From: Deltaproteobacteria bacterium | GTDB lineage: Bacteria > Desulfobacterota > WTBG01 > CAIYCZ01 > CAIRTM01 | DNA: 47,149 nt | Direction: 5' to 3' | NCBI GenBank assembly: GCA_016932595.1 | Contig: JAFGCP010000019.1 | Location: 1-47,149, forward strand | The notes under the pieces: generated by a model | What the model was told of the DNA's origin: nothing | The model's input: only the letters and a program-made list of their open reading frames with translations | Databases searched by the model: none | Position numbers and translations under genes: made by a program | Shown: piece after piece, positions 12,007-36,723 of the stretch | How positions within the stretch are numbered: the first letter of the stretch is position 1 | Layout: every line of letters starts with the position of its first letter

Positions 12007-12372
12007 TTACATCATTGATAAATTTTTGATCTCCTTGAGGTTGGACTGAACATAGGTCTTTATTTTGTCCTGATGCTCGGGCAGAAGTTTAGTAAATTGA
12101 ATGCCCATACCTGCAGGGAAAACTTTTGACTTTGGATTTGTCCATACCACACGGCCTTCAATCGTCATGGTTTCCTGATCATCCGGCAACCGTATATGCA
12201 TGGTAACTTCGGCATCGATGGTCAAGGGTTTATCCGTCTTTAGAAAAAGGCCGCCATTATTAACATTCAGCATATAAGACCTTACAAAAGAACCCTTTTC
12301 CCGGAACTTAATTTCTATGTTTGTTGCTATCCGGGGGCTTTCTCGTGTCTCCTTAACCATTATCTGCTCCAC
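12007..12372 (-). CDS. PilZ-domain protein (putative c-di-GMP receptor)
   Basis: 121 aa. RESPR (RxxxR) is followed about 30 aa later by NVNNGG (a D/NxSxxG-like motif). The C-terminal GMGIQF is typical of the single-domain PilZ/TIGR02266 type. Confidence 0.75.
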   Translation of the reverse strand: MEQIMVKETRESPRIATNIEIKFREKGSFVRSYMLNVNNGGLFLKTDKPLTIDAEVTMHIRLPDDQETMTIEGRVVWTNPKSKVFPAGMGIQFTKLLPEHQDKIKTYVQSNLKEIKNLSMM

Positions 12373-12534: not shown

Positions 12535-12767
12535 TGAAAATTTTTTATAACAAACATAAGGCCAGACCATAGTAATTCTGTGATATAATAGGTGAAAGAC
12601 TCAGGCCAGTCAATTGATAAATCAGGCAGTTGTCGACAGTTGATTGTTTTGGCGGCAGGGCATATACGGCAGACGCCATACAATACTTGGGCTCTAAAAA
12701 AATACTATTCCAAGGACACCTGGACTGCTATAATAAAATTTAAACCGATACAGATGGCGAGGTGCAC

Positions 12768-13109
12768 ATGGATACAAAAACCACAAGGAACGCCCATTCC
12801 ACCGTCAAAATCGAAGGGAACCTCGATGGTCAAAAATCCGATGAACTGATGATCGCCGTTGAACAAAAGATAGTTCCCGGCAATGTCGATATTCTTGTGG
12901 ATTTCGAAAATGTCGAATACATCTCCAGCATGGGGATCGGAACGCTTATTTCACTGTACCGTGATATAAAGGAAAAAAACGGGCGCCTGATCATTTACGG
13001 CATCAGGGATGTGGTAAAAGATATTTTTGACCGTACGCAACTTAATAAACGGCTGCTCATCTGCGAAACTGAAAAAGAGGCCCTCGATCTGCTGTACAAT
13101 AAACCATAA
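12768..13109 (+). CDS. STAS-domain anti-sigma-factor antagonist (SpoIIAA/RsbV-like)
   Basis: VDFENVEYISSMGIGTLISL contains the conserved phosphorylatable Ser context. I prefer the ATG at 12768 (GAGG 6 nt upstream) over the track's GTG at 12762. Confidence 0.85.
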   Translation: MDTKTTRNAHSTVKIEGNLDGQKSDELMIAVEQKIVPGNVDILVDFENVEYISSMGIGTLISLYRDIKEKNGRLIIYGIRDVVKDIFDRTQLNKRLLICETEKEALDLLYNKP

Positions 13110-13155: not shown

Positions 13156-14088
13156 ATGCTCTCATCACTAAACACCACCAAGCCAGCTGCTCCTCTTCAT
13201 GTTCTCATTGTGGACGATAATCCGACAATCACCCGTCTTATCGAACTGCAAATGAGCAAAGCGGGCTACTGCTGCGCCACCGCAGCAAACGGTGAGGAGG
13301 CACTGCAAAAAATAAATAAAAATAATTTTGATCTTGTCATAAGCGATATTTCCATGCCGGGAATAAGCGGCCTGGAGCTTCTCACCTCGATTAAAAGGAA
13401 AAAACCGCATCTGCCCGTACTTATCATAACCGGCCATGCAACCATCGAAAATGCTGTAAAGGCGCTTCGCCTTGGAGCGATCAACTTTATTACAAAACCC
13501 ATCAGATTTGATGAAGTATTTGAGACAATCAACAAAGTTCTCGACATCTACAAGCAAAAAAAAGCCATTCATGCATCGGCCAAATACCTTATTCAGGAAG
13601 CCCGGCATTTTGTCATCCCGACAAGCCAACTGTATGTCAGCGACCTTGCCACCTATTTGACCGAACCCCTCGAACAAATCTCCCTGGTAGATACAGCCTG
13701 CAGAAAAAGCGTGACAATGGCCATCTATGAAACGCTCACCAATGCTGTTGAGCATGGGAACCTGGAGCTGGATTCATCGCTTAAATTCAAAAAAAATGGC
13801 GGCATGGCTGCTTTCAAAAACATGAAGGAACAACGCATGCATGATCCGGCTTATGCCTCGCGCAAAGTGACCATCCAGAGCGCCATTACCGCGACGATGG
13901 CTCAGTTCACCATAGCCGATGAAGGAGCAGGTTTTGATTATAACGCTCTCGTCAACCCCACGAGCGAAGACTGCATTGAAAAGCCTCATGGCCGCGGCAT
14001 TTTTCTTATACAGCAAATATTTGACGAGGTCAGATTCAATCACTCCGGCAACAGCATCTCACTTGTACTGCGCAAAAAAAACATCTGA
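13156..14088 (+). CDS. response-regulator receiver fused to an RsbW/SpoIIAB-like HATPase (serine kinase / anti-sigma) domain
   Basis: REC domain: VLIVDDNP...DLVISDISMPG...ITKP. C-terminal N-box ETLTNAVEHGN, G1 ADEGAGFD, G2 HGRGIFL. Confidence 0.8.
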   Translation: MLSSLNTTKPAAPLHVLIVDDNPTITRLIELQMSKAGYCCATAANGEEALQKINKNNFDLVISDISMPGISGLELLTSIKRKKPHLPVLIITGHATIENAVKALRLGAINFITKPIRFDEVFETINKVLDIYKQKKAIHASAKYLIQEARHFVIPTSQLYVSDLATYLTEPLEQISLVDTACRKSVTMAIYETLTNAVEHGNLELDSSLKFKKNGGMAAFKNMKEQRMHDPAYASRKVTIQSAITATMAQFTIADEGAGFDYNALVNPTSEDCIEKPHGRGIFLIQQIFDEVRFNHSGNSISLVLRKKNI

Positions 14089-30562: not shown

Positions 30563-31303
30563 TCATCCCGCCATTCCCTGCTGATGCAAAAAACTTTCAA
30601 CCATGGCAATGTCCTCGGGCGCGTCAACCCCTATGGGCTCATAATCGGTTTCTGCAACATAAATAGTAAACCCATTTTCAAGGGCCCGCAACTGCTCGAG
30701 GCTTTCAGCCTTTTCAAGCTCGGATTGCGGCAGGCCGGTTAAGTGAAGCAGAAAATCCCGGCGATACACGTAGAGCCCGATATGGCGATACAGAGCGGCG
30801 CCTGCAGTGCGGCTGCGGAAAAACGGTATCGGGGAACGGGAAAAATAAAGAGCTCTGCCGCGGGCATCCGTTACGACCTTGACAACATTAGGGTTTGCCA
30901 TATCCTGATCGGTTTTGATCTTTGCTTTTAGAGTGCCCATGGGAATGCGTTCATCCGCCAGCAGGGGCCGGACAGCCAGATCAATAGTCTGGGGCTGCAG
31001 CAAAGGTTCATCACCCTGCACATTGACAATAAGGTCGGCTTCCATAGCCTGAGCTGCCTCCGCAATACGGTCGGTTCCGGTTTCATGCCTCTCAGAGGTC
31101 AAGCATACTTCTCCGCCAAAAGCCTGAACCGCCCGGACAATCGCGGCACTGTCGGTTGCGACAACCACCCGGTCAAGCACTGCGCATCTGCGGGTGTTTT
31201 CATAGACATGCTGAATCATCGGCTTGCCGCAAATGCTGGCCAGCGGTTTGCCGGGAAACCGTGTAGATGCATAGCGCGCAGGTATGACCGCAACGATCTT
31301 CAT
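30563..31303 (-). CDS. kdsB: 3-deoxy-manno-octulosonate cytidylyltransferase
   Basis: [21 protein letters not shown] ... NVQGDEPL. Confidence 0.95.
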
Positions 31304-31515
31304 GGCTATGTAGTTAATAATACGATAATTTTAATAAATTAAATAAAGTAGTATAGTTTAATTGAACTTCCAAGGCAAGAATAAAAGGATAGAAAAGCAA
31401 CGGTGAATTAAGCCAAATTAAGGAGACTCAGAGGCGATCAGGGCCGATTCAAACAAGGCATCGCAGCATCATACTGCAGGAGGAAAAAGCATGGCATCGA
31501 GCGATGATCGGGATA

Positions 31516-31935
31516 CTAGACGGTGCCTTTTTGCGTCTCTCTGTCTTTATGTATGCTACGCTGCAAATACTTCATGGTCGCTTTCATCAGATGGGATTTT
31601 TTGAAGGGTTTATTCACATATCCCTCATACAGGCCGTTGATCCGGTCCTCTACCTCCCCATGTTCATGACTGGTAATGACAACAATAGGAATATCTTTCA
31701 CATCTTTGTCATTTTTGAGGATAGCTGCAACCTCATATCCGTTTAACAACGGCATCTGTATATCCAGCAATATCAAATCGAATATGCAGGTACGGACCAT
31801 CTCAACTGCTTCCTGTCCGTTAACAGCCTCAATCAGCTCAAAGTTATAATCCTCGTAAAAAGATTTTATCAAATCACGGATGACGAAATTGTCATCGGCA
31901 ATCAGTATGCGCGGCTTTATAAAATTTCCAGCCAT
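31516..31935 (-). CDS. single-domain CheY-like response-regulator receiver
   Basis: 139 aa. ILIADDNFVIRDL ... DLILLDIQMPLLNGYEV ... NKPF. Confidence 0.88.
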   Translation of the reverse strand: MAGNFIKPRILIADDNFVIRDLIKSFYEDYNFELIEAVNGQEAVEMVRTCIFDLILLDIQMPLLNGYEVAAILKNDKDVKDIPIVVITSHEHGEVEDRINGLYEGYVNKPFKKSHLMKATMKYLQRSIHKDRETQKGTV

Positions 31936-32023
31936 AACAATCCGTTAATCAGCGCTCTATGCAAAAGTTAAGAAACAAGGGCACGGTAGCAGTGACGGTA
32001 TGAGCAAATCAGCGAGCTCCTGC

Positions 32024-32055
32024 AATAAAAAACCCCTCCTGAAAATACGGAGAGG
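32024..32055 (-). terminator. intrinsic terminator (expression platform of the candidate riboswitch)
   Basis: The minus strand reads CCUCUCC-guauuuuca-GGAGGGG followed by UUUUUUAUU. Confidence 0.7.
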
Positions 32056-32074
32056 CCGGGTGTGATACATTAAT

Positions 32075-32160
32075 TTCACTACCGGCAGCCCCGCTGTCCT
32101 TACATTTCAGGACCGGTAACTTTGCGACCTACTCTTACGAAGTAGTGTGCTCTTTTCGGT
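32075..32160 (-). promoter_or_regulatory. candidate c-di-GMP-I (GEMM-I) riboswitch aptamer
   Basis: The minus strand reads AAAAGAGCACA CUACUUC-GUAA-GAGUAG GUCGCAAAG UUACCGGUCCU-GAAAUGUA-AGGAC AGCGGGGCUGCCGGUAG. It matches the remembered GEMM-I layout: GNRA-capped hairpin, CGCAAAG junction and AGCGGGG-N3-CCG. Confidence 0.6.
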
Positions 32161-32175
32161 TTTGTACTTTGAAAA

Positions 32176-32204
32176 AGTTTATTTATATTCAGTTGCTATT
32201 ACAA
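32176..32204 (-). promoter_or_regulatory. sigma-70-like promoter for the riboswitch leader
   Basis: TTGTAA-N17-TAAACT on the minus strand, inside an AT-rich stretch just upstream of the aptamer. Confidence 0.4.
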
Positions 32205-32522
32205 TACATGCTACTGATGCATATAGAAACTATTATAACATATTAAACTTCAGGTCAATAACTTTTATGCTTTATGTATATTTAAATTAAGGATGCCCAA
32301 ATTGAACCTGTGAAAACATGAACCATCCACGTGCGCCCCAAGTTTACTTCAACCCTTGATTTTTCAGTATATGTATGTGGCGCATACAGATGTTAAAAAA
32401 TGCAAGTTGCAGTCATGTGTGGCGGCTTTCAGCATATGTCTATGACCGACTGCATGGCGCAACATAGCATAAAGGCTTAAAAATTCCGGCACGTTTTCAA
32501 TTAAACCAAGTCAAAGATATGC

Positions 32523-33185
32523 TCATGCCTGCATGCCAAGATGCCTGCCGGTATCATAACAGCGCTGCAGCAATTCCCGATTGCGGCAGCTGTCGCCAAC
32601 GGCAAGGTATGCGGGAAGGCCTAATTTTTCATACAGGGCTGCAAGCTCGCCTGCCGGCCTTGCCACTTGTCCGGCAACGGCAAGCCTGGTGCCTGAAATA
32701 ACCTCGAGAGTAGTATCATTGCCGAGTATACCGGTCATAAATTTAAAAAGTTCTATCACGGGCTGAGCATCTGCCGCGTCTGATGATCCCATGCTCAGCA
32801 GCAGCACAAAGCTCTTGCTCCAGGGCTGCCATGGCGTGTGCCGGATGCTCTCCGGCGTAAGCTGCACTTGAATAAATGAGCGGAAACGATCGATAATTTT
32901 TTTAAGCGGGGCGGTAAGATGATGAAAGTAGACAGGAGAAGCAAAAACCAGGGCATCAGCAGCCAGAATCTTTTCACTCAGAGCTTGCCAGTCATCTCCG
33001 CTCAGCGCGCAGCGCCTGAGCACATTGCAGCGCAGGCAGCCCGCGCAGTATTTAAGATTCAAATCCTGGGCGACAAGCACCTCGGCCTGCCCGCCGGCGT
33101 CACGCACGCCGCGCAGCAGCTCTGCCAGCAGCAGCGATGTGTTGCCTTTTCTGCGGGGGCTCCCGTTAAAAGCAAGAACGTTCAT
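32523..33185 (-). CDS. iron-sulfur flavoprotein-like NAD(P)H-dependent FMN reductase
   Basis: MNVLAFNGSPRRKGNTS (flavodoxin-like) plus the compact motif CAGCLRCNVLRRC (CX2CX2CX5C) typical of Isf proteins. Confidence 0.8.
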   Translation of the reverse strand: MNVLAFNGSPRRKGNTSLLLAELLRGVRDAGGQAEVLVAQDLNLKYCAGCLRCNVLRRCALSGDDWQALSEKILAADALVFASPVYFHHLTAPLKKIIDRFRSFIQVQLTPESIRHTPWQPWSKSFVLLLSMGSSDAADAQPVIELFKFMTGILGNDTTLEVISGTRLAVAGQVARPAGELAALYEKLGLPAYLAVGDSCRNRELLQRCYDTGRHLGMQA

Positions 33186-34839: not shown

Positions 34840-36723
34840 TTACTGCTGCGGCTTATGCCGTATGGTCTCTATATACTGTTCAAATTTAAATTTCGGGTCA
34901 TCATCGGGCCCATGACAGGTTCGGCATATCTGCTCGACAACACAGCTGTCGCATGAACCGCCCAGGCCGACGATATAGTCCTGCCCCTTTTTCTCGGGAT
35001 TCTGTATATGCCGCTCGCCAGGACCGTGACAGGCCTCGCACTGAACACCCTCTCTGCCGGGGGCTGGATAACCGCCGGGACTGCCCGAACCCGTAGTAAA
35101 CCGATATTTTTTCTCCGGCGGCGCCGCTGCAGCCGCCGGAGAATGTGCTACAGCCGCATGGGCTGTTGTTGACCACTGTGCATACTCATGCTCATGGCAT
35201 TTTTTGCATGATTCCGCCCCGATATACGCAGCCGGATTTCCGAAAAGATCATTTTTCCGCTTATGCTCGCTTAGCAGTTTCACCCGCTGCTCCCGGCTCA
35301 TGGATGCAATGCCGGATGCAGCGCTATGCAAAACTTTCGGAAAGCGGCGGGCGAAATTGAAGTTGAGCGATTCCTTTTCCGTATGGCAGGACAGGCACAG
35401 GGCCTTCCATTCTTCTGAACTTTTCTTGTGCGGCTTTATGCCGGTAAATGCCGCGCAGGCTTCATAGCCGGGGCCATGGCAGGATTCGCACTGTACGCCT
35501 TCTAAGAAGCGTCTATTCATTTTGTCATTAATCGCATAGCCGCCTTGCTGACCCCAGCCCGTTACATGACAGCTGACGCATGCAGGGTCATCCTCCCTGC
35601 CTTTGCGGTACACAGATTTAAATGCATCGGCGTGTCCGGTAAGGCTCCACTGTATATGCTCCTTTTCGTGACAAATTACGCAACGGTCCTGGCCAGAATA
35701 GCCTTTGGGATTTAACAGAGGCTTATTCGGCAAACCGCACAGTTTGCGCAACTCCATAAAATACAAATCCATCATCCTGCCTGAAAAGCCTGTATGCTTG
35801 GCATAAATACGGCCAGAACGGTCTATGATAAACCCCATCGGCACAGAGCCGGCAAAAGACGGAAACAAAGAAGAAATGCTGTTGTCCGTATCCGCTATAA
35901 CAGGAAAAGAATAGCGCTGCTGCTTGATGAACAGGTTTGTCTGCTCCTGATTGAAACGGCTCACGGCAACAACAAAAAACTTGCCCTTGAATTCATCTCC
36001 CATAAGCAGGCTGTTAAGAAAGGCCAGTTCATCACGGCAATGGCCGCAGGTTGGCGACATGAACACAATAACAACAGGCATCATGGCGTACAGCTCTTGT
36101 ATGCTCATCTTCGTGCCATCGAGTTTCGGCAGATCAAAAACAGGGGCCATCGGCCTGTCGCCAAGAACAGGCTCGTCAGCGGGGATAAAGCCCGTCTTGA
36201 TGCTGCGATTGACGAAAACATGCAACGCCTGCGTGAAATTTTTCTGCGGCGGAATATTTACAGCAGCCAGGCTGCTCATGAGTCCGCCCTGTTTGTTAAA
36301 TATATACAGAGAAAGATCACCCGCTAGATTCAGGCTTTTAGCTGCCACTTTTGGGTTTTCAAGCAGCAGGGGGAAAGTGGCGTTATGATTCTGGTTGAAT
36401 TTAACAACTTCATCAGTGCGGTTGTCATTGATATTGAGGCCCAGCACCTCGAAATTATATTCTCCTCTGATGCGATACATGTCCTGCATAAACTTGACAG
36501 CCTCGCCCGCGCGGGGATTGTCGATGGAATAGGCAAGCAGCAGAATTGTTTTGCCCTTGAAGCGCTCCGCATCAAAAGGCGCGGACACCGGCTGATGAGG
36601 CACAATGCGCTTGACGGGGGCAGGAACATTGACGGGAGGACGAGCAAAGGGTTGTGAATAAACGCTCTCCGCGGTGGGGAATACTAACCATAATAGAACA
36701 GCCGCAACAATTTTTTTTCTCAT
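34840..36723 (-). CDS. periplasmic fusion: two TlpA/thioredoxin-like domains + heptahaem cytochrome c
   Basis: 627 aa with a signal peptide. The second redoxin domain carries CGHC (SPTCGHCRDE). The first has no CxxC. The C-terminal half has seven CxxCH motifs: CVICH, CVSCH, CESCH, CLSCH, CKKCH, CEACH, CRTCH. Confidence 0.85.
   Translation of the reverse strand: MRKKIVAAVLLWLVFPTAESVYSQPFARPPVNVPAPVKRIVPHQPVSAPFDAERFKGKTILLLAYSIDNPRAGEAVKFMQDMYRIRGEYNFEVLGLNINDNRTDEVVKFNQNHNATFPLLLENPKVAAKSLNLAGDLSLYIFNKQGGLMSSLAAVNIPPQKNFTQALHVFVNRSIKTGFIPADEPVLGDRPMAPVFDLPKLDGTKMSIQELYAMMPVVIVFMSPTCGHCRDELAFLNSLLMGDEFKGKFFVVAVSRFNQEQTNLFIKQQRYSFPVIADTDNSISSLFPSFAGSVPMGFIIDRSGRIYAKHTGFSGRMMDLYFMELRKLCGLPNKPLLNPKGYSGQDRCVICHEKEHIQWSLTGHADAFKSVYRKGREDDPACVSCHVTGWGQQGGYAINDKMNRRFLEGVQCESCHGPGYEACAAFTGIKPHKKSSEEWKALCLSCHTEKESLNFNFARRFPKVLHSAASGIASMSREQRVKLLSEHKRKNDLFGNPAAYIGAESCKKCHEHEYAQWSTTAHAAVAHSPAAAAAPPEKKYRFTTGSGSPGGYPAPGREGVQCEACHGPGERHIQNPEKKGQDYIVGLGGSCDSCVVEQICRTCHGPDDDPKFKFEQYIETIRHKPQQ

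Follow-up and report, generated by a model that had tools for sequence, protein, structure and literature searches.

GEMM riboswitches, as described in Weinberg 2007 (PMC1950547), have a GNRA or GYRA tetraloop capping the first hairpin, and a linker AAA that follows the sequence CGC; in many of them the terminator overlaps the 3' hairpin of the aptamer, which makes them ON switches, and cheY and signal-transduction genes are listed among the genes that they regulate. Described relatives that bear on the present case are Vc2 of V. cholerae, which discriminates against 3',3'-cyclic GMP-AMP (hereafter cGAMP) (PMC6140456); the cyclic di-GMP (c-di-GMP)-I OFF riboswitches Cd1 (C. difficile flgB) and Bc1 (B. 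thuringiensis); and the GEMM-Ib (i.e., cGAMP) riboswitches of Geobacter (Gs1761/pgcA, Gmet_0970, and pilM). Here, we analyze an RNA of this fold encoded on the minus strand of a 47,149-nucleotide (nt) stretch of DNA from a Deltaproteobacteria bacterium (contig JAFGCP010000019.1, assembly GCA_016932595.1; the whole stretch is called the window), where it lies in the 5' leader of a gene for a single-domain response-regulator receiver. We read it as a transcription-terminating riboswitch of the GEMM-I fold that most likely senses 3',3'-cGAMP and would work by an OFF mechanism, and we give this reading as a whole a probability of about 0.55.

The window RNA has in common with the Geobacter GEMM-Ib riboswitches the GEMM-I fold, the triad of ligand-contact residues (A20, A47, and C92 in Vc2 numbering), and a host in the same broad group, the Desulfobacterota (formerly Deltaproteobacteria), but it precedes a single-domain receiver gene rather than a cytochrome, pilus, or polysaccharide gene and, unlike them, has a P1 helix of only 3–4 base pairs (bp). 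The layout is also that of Vc2 (A-rich junction, P2 with a GNRA-type cap, CGCAAAG junction, P3, and AGCGGGG..CCG), except that Vc2 has G20 where the window has A, and a GAAA tetraloop with its receptor where the window has a loop of the GYRA type without one. Cd1 and Bc1, like the window, have a separate terminator downstream of the aptamer; in both, ligand favors termination and an antiterminator competes against the 3' portion of the aptamer, as proposed below for the window, but they are c-di-GMP sensors with G11 at the specificity position, come from Firmicutes, control other target genes, and have much longer platforms. Judged by the sequence of its pocket, the window RNA appears to group with GEMM-Ib and not with the c-di-GMP-selective Vc2, Cd1, and Bc1; by analogy of platform it resembles the OFF-type Cd1 and Bc1, while its putative switching hairpin resembles that of pilM. 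Neither the riboswitch class nor terminator-based control nor a link to cheY-like and signal-transduction genes is new, so what is reported here is a refinement and not a discovery: an earlier note on this DNA had taken the pairing of riboswitch and receiver as undescribed, whereas its pairing with a CheY-type gene has been known since the 2007 description cited above.

The aptamer, its conservation, and its ligand pocket

The letters of the minus strand from 32204 to 32024 are identical to those quoted in the earlier note, and the covariance-model search that it had proposed as a check (cmscan, Rfam 15) identifies minus-strand positions 32161..32081 as a match to RF01051 (c-di-GMP-I), with 55.6 bits (gathering score 35), an E value of 2.7e-8, and alignment over model positions 1–87 of 87, in agreement with the GEMM-I layout read there from the sequence. 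This is the sole Rfam match above gathering score across the whole window, and a permissive local Rfam scan of the window gave no further credible match. The GUAA loop on the first hairpin and the CGCAAAG linker are both present, as expected from the family description of Weinberg 2007. Coordinates of the aptamer and of the other features discussed below are collected in Table 1.

Table 1. Features of the riboswitch locus. Coordinates are those of the window, except in the last three rows, which give positions in the respective orthologous loci.
Feature	Coordinates	Strand	Basis or remark
Candidate sigma-70-type promoter: TTGACC (32258-32253), N15, TATAAT (32237-32232)	32232..32258	-	sequence and partial conservation
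Promoter-like pair TTGTAA (32204-32199), N17, TAAACT (32181-32176)	32176..32204	-	present in sequence
GEMM-I-fold cyclic-dinucleotide aptamer	32081..32161	-	RF01051 match; GYRA (GUAA) tetraloop type, without tetraloop receptor
P1 5' strand ACCG	32157..32160	-	partner 32084-32081 (CGGU); short helix, 3-4 bp
Specificity nucleotide A	32151	-	model position 11; equivalent to Vc2 G20, Cd1 G11, Gs1761 A14
P2 hairpin CUACUUC-GUAA-GAGUAG, 1-nt bulge	32129..32145	-	pairing in seven aptamers
A47 equivalent	32123	-	first A following CGC; invariant in orthologs
P3 hairpin with bulged A	32087..32121	-	pairing in seven aptamers
C92 equivalent	32085	-	invariant in orthologs
Switch hairpin, proposed antiterminator	32047..32094	-	lowest-energy nascent-RNA fold in window
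Intrinsic terminator: CCUCUCC (32055-32049), 9-nt loop, GGAGGGG (32039-32033), U6 (32032-32027)	32027..32055	-	read from sequence
Remaining 5' leader, sequence-conserved (ATTGCA..TTTGCTCATAC..CACTRCT)	31936..32026	-	ortholog alignment
139-residue single-domain response-regulator receiver, regulated gene	31516..31935	-	Pfam Response_reg (PF00072), 78.2 bits (threshold 30.2)
Receiver/PilZ locus L163	5426-5812 and 5957-6310
Receiver/PilZ locus L165	1224-1562 and 1666-2388
Receiver/PilZ locus L166	2465-2851

Besides the window, we examined the DNA of eight other loci of the receiver family (L001 and L161–L167). Contig scans with the receiver alignment returned almost exclusively distant receivers (30–41% identity), with L001 as the sole true ortholog; the remaining orthologous loci were retrieved by exact-protein look-up. 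The same aptamer is found 220–240 nt upstream of the receiver start codon in six of the eight (L001, L161, L162, L164, L166, and L167), and the aptamer-bearing loci belong to uncultured Desulfobacterota. A hairpin and U6 follow the aptamer in 7/7 loci (the window and the six orthologs), and the arrangement noted earlier for the window alone, a riboswitch with terminator in the leader of a single-domain receiver, is thereby seen in six further loci. As the neighboring genes vary between loci, the conserved unit is the leader together with the receiver. In L163 and L165, where the receivers are 64–67% identical and a PilZ gene follows, no riboswitch was detected even at E values up to 10; the riboswitch is not universal in the receiver family.

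Across the seven aptamers (a small sample of related members), 96.4% of the cells at the 24 aptamer pairs are standard pairs, compared with 24–46% when the 3' partners are slid by 1–3 columns, and compensatory changes on both sides are present at four pairs, in support of a three-helix junction of P1, P2, and P3. P2 (helix 3) is 100% paired, with both-side changes at two pairs; P3 (helix 4) is 95.2% paired, also with both-side changes at two pairs (e.g., U-G, U-A, and C-G at one of them); and P1 (helix 1) has 92.9% of its cells paired and one change from C-G to U-G. No ligand-contact or junction nucleotide varies. The GCACA-for-GCAAA deviation remarked on in the earlier note is real, with C in 5/7 and A in 2/7 of the orthologous aptamers, and the position is therefore variable within the clade. 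A covariance model built from the seven aptamers gave no match in ~159 loci of distant single-domain receivers, a null result that bounds only the close relatives of the aptamer because the model is narrow (effective sequence number 1.13). That the match arose by chance, or is a decayed and non-functional relic, is highly improbable: the C for A in the conserved GCAAA loop, the 1-nt bulge in P2, and the very short P1 would fit decay, but the low E value, the retention of the element with compensatory changes in seven loci having different flanking genes, and the invariance of every ligand-contact and junction nucleotide argue against it. It is virtually certain that a genuine riboswitch is present at this position.

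In characterized RNAs of this fold, the ligand-contact residues are G20, A47, and C92 (Vc2), G12, A39, and C104 (Vc1), and G11, A38, and C81 (Bc1); the first two of them are 27 nt apart in all three RNAs, with an interhelical C at A47-3 (PMC4744006, PMC11218506). From this common spacing it follows that Rfam position 11 corresponds to G20 and that the first A past CGC corresponds to A47. The base altered in the Cd1 mutants G11C and G11A (supplement of PMC9262584) is likewise the one directly 5' of GCAAA. In the cmscan alignment, the window shows a single mismatch among the ligand-contact positions, namely at model position 11, where the consensus G is replaced by A (AAAAG-A-GC), and the base at the Vc2-G20 position is A in 7/7 loci. 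When aligned with two validated sensors whose sequences were taken from the supplement of PMC9262584 (alignment A6, column 15), this base is A in the window, L166, and L001, as it is in pilM (cGAMP), whereas Cd1 (c-di-GMP) has G.

A47 of Vc2 intercalates between the bases of the ligand, and C92 makes a Watson-Crick pair with its G-beta. G20 reads the G-alpha of c-di-GMP, cGAMP riboswitches have A in its place (PMC6140456), and the single change A20G turns Gmet_0970 from cGAMP- to c-di-GMP-selective (PMC6456294). The pocket triad of the window, A32151/A32123/C32085 (A20/A47/C92), is the GEMM-Ib signature, and the G that marks c-di-GMP-selective RNAs at the Vc2-G20 position is found neither in the window nor in any of the six orthologs. 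This signature makes 3',3'-cGAMP the most likely ligand; as far as sequence can tell, the riboswitch is probably cGAMP-preferring, perhaps with weaker binding of c-di-GMP. The earlier note had left the ligand open in its discussion while putting c-di-GMP in its headline, a label that is unsupported because the decisive base, which it had missed, is A.

Several observations weigh against cGAMP selectivity. An adenine at position 20 allows binding of c-di-GMP via its protonated form, and some natural A20 riboswitches are bispecific (PMC6140456), so that the sequence by itself is no proof of selectivity; no GGDEF or CD-NTase gene, the kinds that encode cGAMP synthases (Hypr GGDEF such as GacA, or DncV), was found among the scanned open reading frames (ORFs) of the window; and the receiver family often adjoins PilZ and HD-GYP genes, classically members of c-di-GMP networks, with paralogous receivers sharing operons with such genes and the riboswitch of L166 preceding a receiver-PilZ pair. 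The same terminator-based platform could thus serve a canonical c-di-GMP riboswitch, or a bispecific one with c-di-GMP as its physiological ligand, which we consider unlikely without dismissing it. The best-matching Rfam family does carry the name c-di-GMP-I, but RF01051 includes the cGAMP subclass, which was originally annotated as c-di-GMP riboswitches; the exchange of G and A at position 20 flips selectivity in tested RNAs (PMC6456294), and here the specificity base is A throughout. According to a preprint (bioRxiv 10.1101/600031), HD-GYP enzymes are linked to cGAMP turnover as well. For annotation, a match to RF01051 should not be read as "c-di-GMP" before position 20 has been checked.

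The best family for the aptamers of L001 (3779-3858), L167 (433-513), and L166 (1691-1774) is RF03167 (c-di-GMP-I-GGC), with scores of 60.3 for L001 and 63.6 for L167 against a gathering score of 59. The consensus of this variant has G at the positions of both G20 and A47 (CGCGAA), whereas the three aptamers have A at both, and their matches are a scoring artefact of overall similarity rather than a sign of membership. The window aptamer does not belong to RF03167 either, its best family being RF01051. Automatic annotation would mislabel the aptamers of L001, L166, and L167 as RF03167.

The terminator and a proposed switching hairpin

The intrinsic terminator claimed in the earlier note at about 20 nt downstream is present and begins 25 nt past the aptamer, with a 7-bp stem and a local folding free energy of -10.8 kcal/mol; a consensus terminator scan missed it because the loops allowed in the scan were limited to at most 8 nt. 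Changes in the terminator stem among the loci are one-sided (U-G to C-G or U-A), and L166 has a longer arm pair (GCCUCUCCC/GGGAGAGGC). Both arms lie outside the aptamer, at least 25 nt beyond it, in contrast to the overlapping ON-type platform that is typical of the Geobacter GEMM-Ib examples, though not strictly defining for the subclass. Since neither arm overlaps the aptamer, the ligand cannot block the terminator directly.

The nascent window transcript has as its lowest-energy fold a three-tier hairpin, the proposed antiterminator. In its outer stem, GCGGGG (32094-32089, the 3' strand of P3) pairs with CUCCGU (32052-32047), followed by a 2x2 internal loop; in its middle stem, GCCGG (32086-32082, comprising the C92 equivalent and the 3' strand of P1) pairs with CCGGC (32059-32055); and the inner tier is GUGA..UCAC. 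The outer 3' arm covers four of the seven nucleotides of the terminator 5' arm. The same hairpin is the lowest-energy nascent fold in L001 and L166 and is in a near tie in L161 and L164, and the aptamer edge GCCGG is paired downstream with a probability of ~1 in 7/7 loci. In L001 and L166, the 3' arm differs in sequence and register, yet it pairs with the conserved aptamer edge and reaches the terminator arm.

This three-tier architecture is shared by pilM, whose 3' half folds into an outer stem of 6 bp, a loop of 2 nt, a middle stem of 5 bp, and an inner hairpin, with energies of -25.4 vs -23.9 kcal/mol in the comparison. The pilM hairpin is reported to form in the ligand-free state, sequestering the ligand-pairing C75, and it hides the ligand-pairing C and the 3' strand of P3 just as the window hairpin would. 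In pilM a U-tract follows directly and the hairpin is itself the terminator of an ON switch, whereas in the window one more arm (GGAGGGG) and U6 come after the hairpin, so that a pilM-like hairpin would here be an antiterminator and the riboswitch an OFF switch. The sequence just past the switch hairpin (window 32019-32048, minus strand) is GUAUUUUCA; some loci are rich in U here, whereas L001 (AUUCAGUCA) and L166 are not, and the stretch could be what is left of the U-tract of a pilM-like terminator. The AUUGCA that comes after the real U-tract hardly varies across all the loci.

When P1 was constrained to form, as a proxy for bound ligand, the terminator probability went up to 1.00 in 7/7 loci (window, from 0.51; L166, from 0.22) and was never lowered. 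When the window leader is profiled by length, it has P1 and the aptamer at nt 80–104, P1 is gone at nt 107, the antiterminator has a probability of 1.0 at nt 116–125, and after the 3' arm of the terminator has emerged, the leader is bistable (terminator 0.57, antiterminator 0.37).

The mechanism that we propose is as follows. The aptamer would be complete and competent to bind between about nt 81 and nt 104 of the leader. With ligand bound, the short P1, the C92 equivalent, and P3 would be held in place and the C-rich segment downstream would stay free; this segment and GGAGGGG would then pair into the terminator stem that precedes U6, and transcription would stop (OFF). In the ligand-free state, the newly emerging CCGGC, and then CUCCGU, would invade the 3' strand of P1, C92, and the 3' strand of P3, and by covering part of the terminator 5' arm the resulting three-tier hairpin would let the polymerase read through into the receiver gene. 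The OFF polarity that these folding models point to is moderately supported.

A number of results weigh against it. The characterized Geobacter GEMM-Ib riboswitches are all ON (PMC6456294). In L162 and L167, the lowest-energy nascent fold leaves the terminator arm uncovered, and the duplex between aptamer edge and terminator arm beats composition-matched shuffles only in L001 (p~0.015) and L166 (p~0.03); in the window p is ~0.26, and G-rich/C-rich composition alone explains much of the pairing. The full-length lowest-energy fold at equilibrium has the terminator in every locus, so that regulation would have to be kinetic. Moreover, we found no mention of an OFF-type GEMM-Ib riboswitch in the searched literature, which is weak negative evidence.

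The polarity could instead be ON, or the terminator might not be switched at all: it could attenuate constitutively, or a short and stable leader RNA could end there, with the ligand acting in another way, e.g., via RNA stability or via a released C-rich strand that competes for the terminator 3' arm. The ON polarity of the Geobacter examples, the fact that most loci keep the terminator in the full-length equilibrium fold whether or not P1 is constrained, and the weak antiterminator extension in L162 and L167 all speak for such an arrangement. We nonetheless rate it as quite improbable: neither terminator arm overlaps the aptamer, the P1 constraint in no case lowers the terminator probability, and the strand that ligand would release is C-rich like the terminator 5' arm, with ~4 bp (ACCC/GGGU) to set against the 7 bp of the terminator.

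The receiver family and its links to cyclic-dinucleotide genes

The receiver controlled by the putative OFF switch belongs to a family of ~45 proteins with 55–85% identity from uncultured "Deltaproteobacteria", beyond which identity drops abruptly to ~40%; D14, D15, D58, and K109 (acidic pocket, phospho-acceptor Asp, and conserved Lys) are invariant in 32 members. The term "CheY-type", used in the earlier note, is apt in its generic sense only: the nearest solved structures are DivK (1.3e-15) and then CheY, no specific NCBIfam family or equivalog passes its cut-off for the receiver, and no che genes are located near it among the window ORFs scanned.

Members of the family are repeatedly followed by a PilZ gene and sometimes then by a gene for an HD-GYP protein or a PAS-GerE regulator, a linkage that also appears in gene tables for the contigs on which P0030, P0024, and P0027 lie. 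The receiver-adjacent PilZ proteins form one group (55–73% identity). A receiver-PilZ operon is present without the riboswitch in L163 and L165, the riboswitch and PilZ occur together in L166, and the riboswitch stands without an adjacent PilZ gene in the window, L161, L162, L164, and L167; this pattern suggests two alternative wirings of the receiver to cyclic-dinucleotide signaling.

The PilZ protein mentioned in the earlier note is indeed encoded in the window (12372..12007, minus strand), but it belongs to the TIGR02266 family, shares 85% identity with the second PilZ of L163, and is not of the type that adjoins the receiver family elsewhere. It was rejected as a partner of the receiver on these grounds and is accordingly weak support for a local c-di-GMP link. 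Beside it lie genes for a STAS protein (12762-13109) and for a receiver fused to an RsbW-like HATPase_c_2 domain (13156-14088), which look like a partner-switching module.

The points of greatest interest are the OFF polarity predicted for a cGAMP-type aptamer and the recurrent link of the receiver family to PilZ/HD-GYP genes. More tentatively, the locus may hold a natural OFF-type 3',3'-cGAMP riboswitch that arose from a pilM-like ON platform by one added arm and represses a stand-alone phosphorelay receiver; in the literature searched, OFF polarity was found reported for c-di-GMP (Cd1 and Bc1) and not for cGAMP. The Geobacter cGAMP synthase GacA is itself receiver-controlled, and the receiver could therefore, as a phosphate sink or by competition, close a feedback loop that joins the phosphorelay to cGAMP signaling. 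If this is true, cGAMP riboswitch signaling extends past cultured Geobacter to an uncultured lineage of Desulfobacterota, the polarity of a riboswitch has been inverted by a single helix arm added to an existing platform, and a cyclic-dinucleotide signal is tied to the level of a free-standing receiver whose relatives have PilZ/HD-GYP operon partners.

Promoters, the remaining leader, and surrounding genes

The gene upstream of the riboswitch, which encodes an FMN_red flavoprotein, ends at 32523, leaving a gap of 587 nt to the receiver ATG (31935), close to the ~590 nt given in the earlier note. Within this gap, TTGACC-N15-TATAAT, with its perfect TATAAT, has TTGACA-N17-TATATT and TATACA as its aligned counterparts in L161 and L164 and would, if it is the promoter, start transcription near 32225; on sequence, it is a better promoter candidate than the TTGTAA-N17-TAAACT pair that had been pointed out before. 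The latter is present as quoted, but its role as a promoter is unsupported: it matches 8 of 12 consensus positions, falls below the scan threshold, and is not conserved in the orthologous leaders. The promoter scan lists TTGACC at 32258, there paired with AATAGT at 18-nt spacing, and promoter-like sites are no commoner in the region than in shuffles (3 found, 3.4 expected). In L162, L001, and L167, a TGGCAC-N5-TTGT box is found ~110–125 nt upstream of the aptamer (alignment A4, columns ~37–52); it is sigma-54-like, with GT replacing the -12 GC, and stands where the window, L161, and L164 have a sigma-70-like TTGACM box; the type of promoter may differ between orthologous leaders.

The ~90 nt of leader beyond the terminator are conserved in sequence, with no consensus structure supported there by RNAalifold (-0.02 kcal/mol), and a GGA ribosome-binding site lies ~8 nt before the receiver ATG. 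A 40-residue ORF (32079..31957) that overlaps the platform was considered as a leader peptide and rejected because 1–2 nt indels between orthologs break its frame.

From 31515 to 31304, the stretch separating the receiver stop codon from kdsB (31303..30563), the minus strand showed no terminator-like site, so that read-through from the riboswitch transcript into kdsB-kdsA is possible. Two promoter-like sites are located in this gap (31497..31468 and 31378..31350), and the kdsB context downstream is not shared by the orthologous loci. The window is chromosomal, with an rpoN-lptB-kdsAB cluster, relA/spoT, and a multiheme cytochrome gene. At 34840-36723 (minus strand), it encodes a 627-residue protein that joins an AhpC/TSA peroxiredoxin domain to multiheme cytochrome domains (Cytochrome_C554, MtrC/MtrF-like), an unusual fusion.

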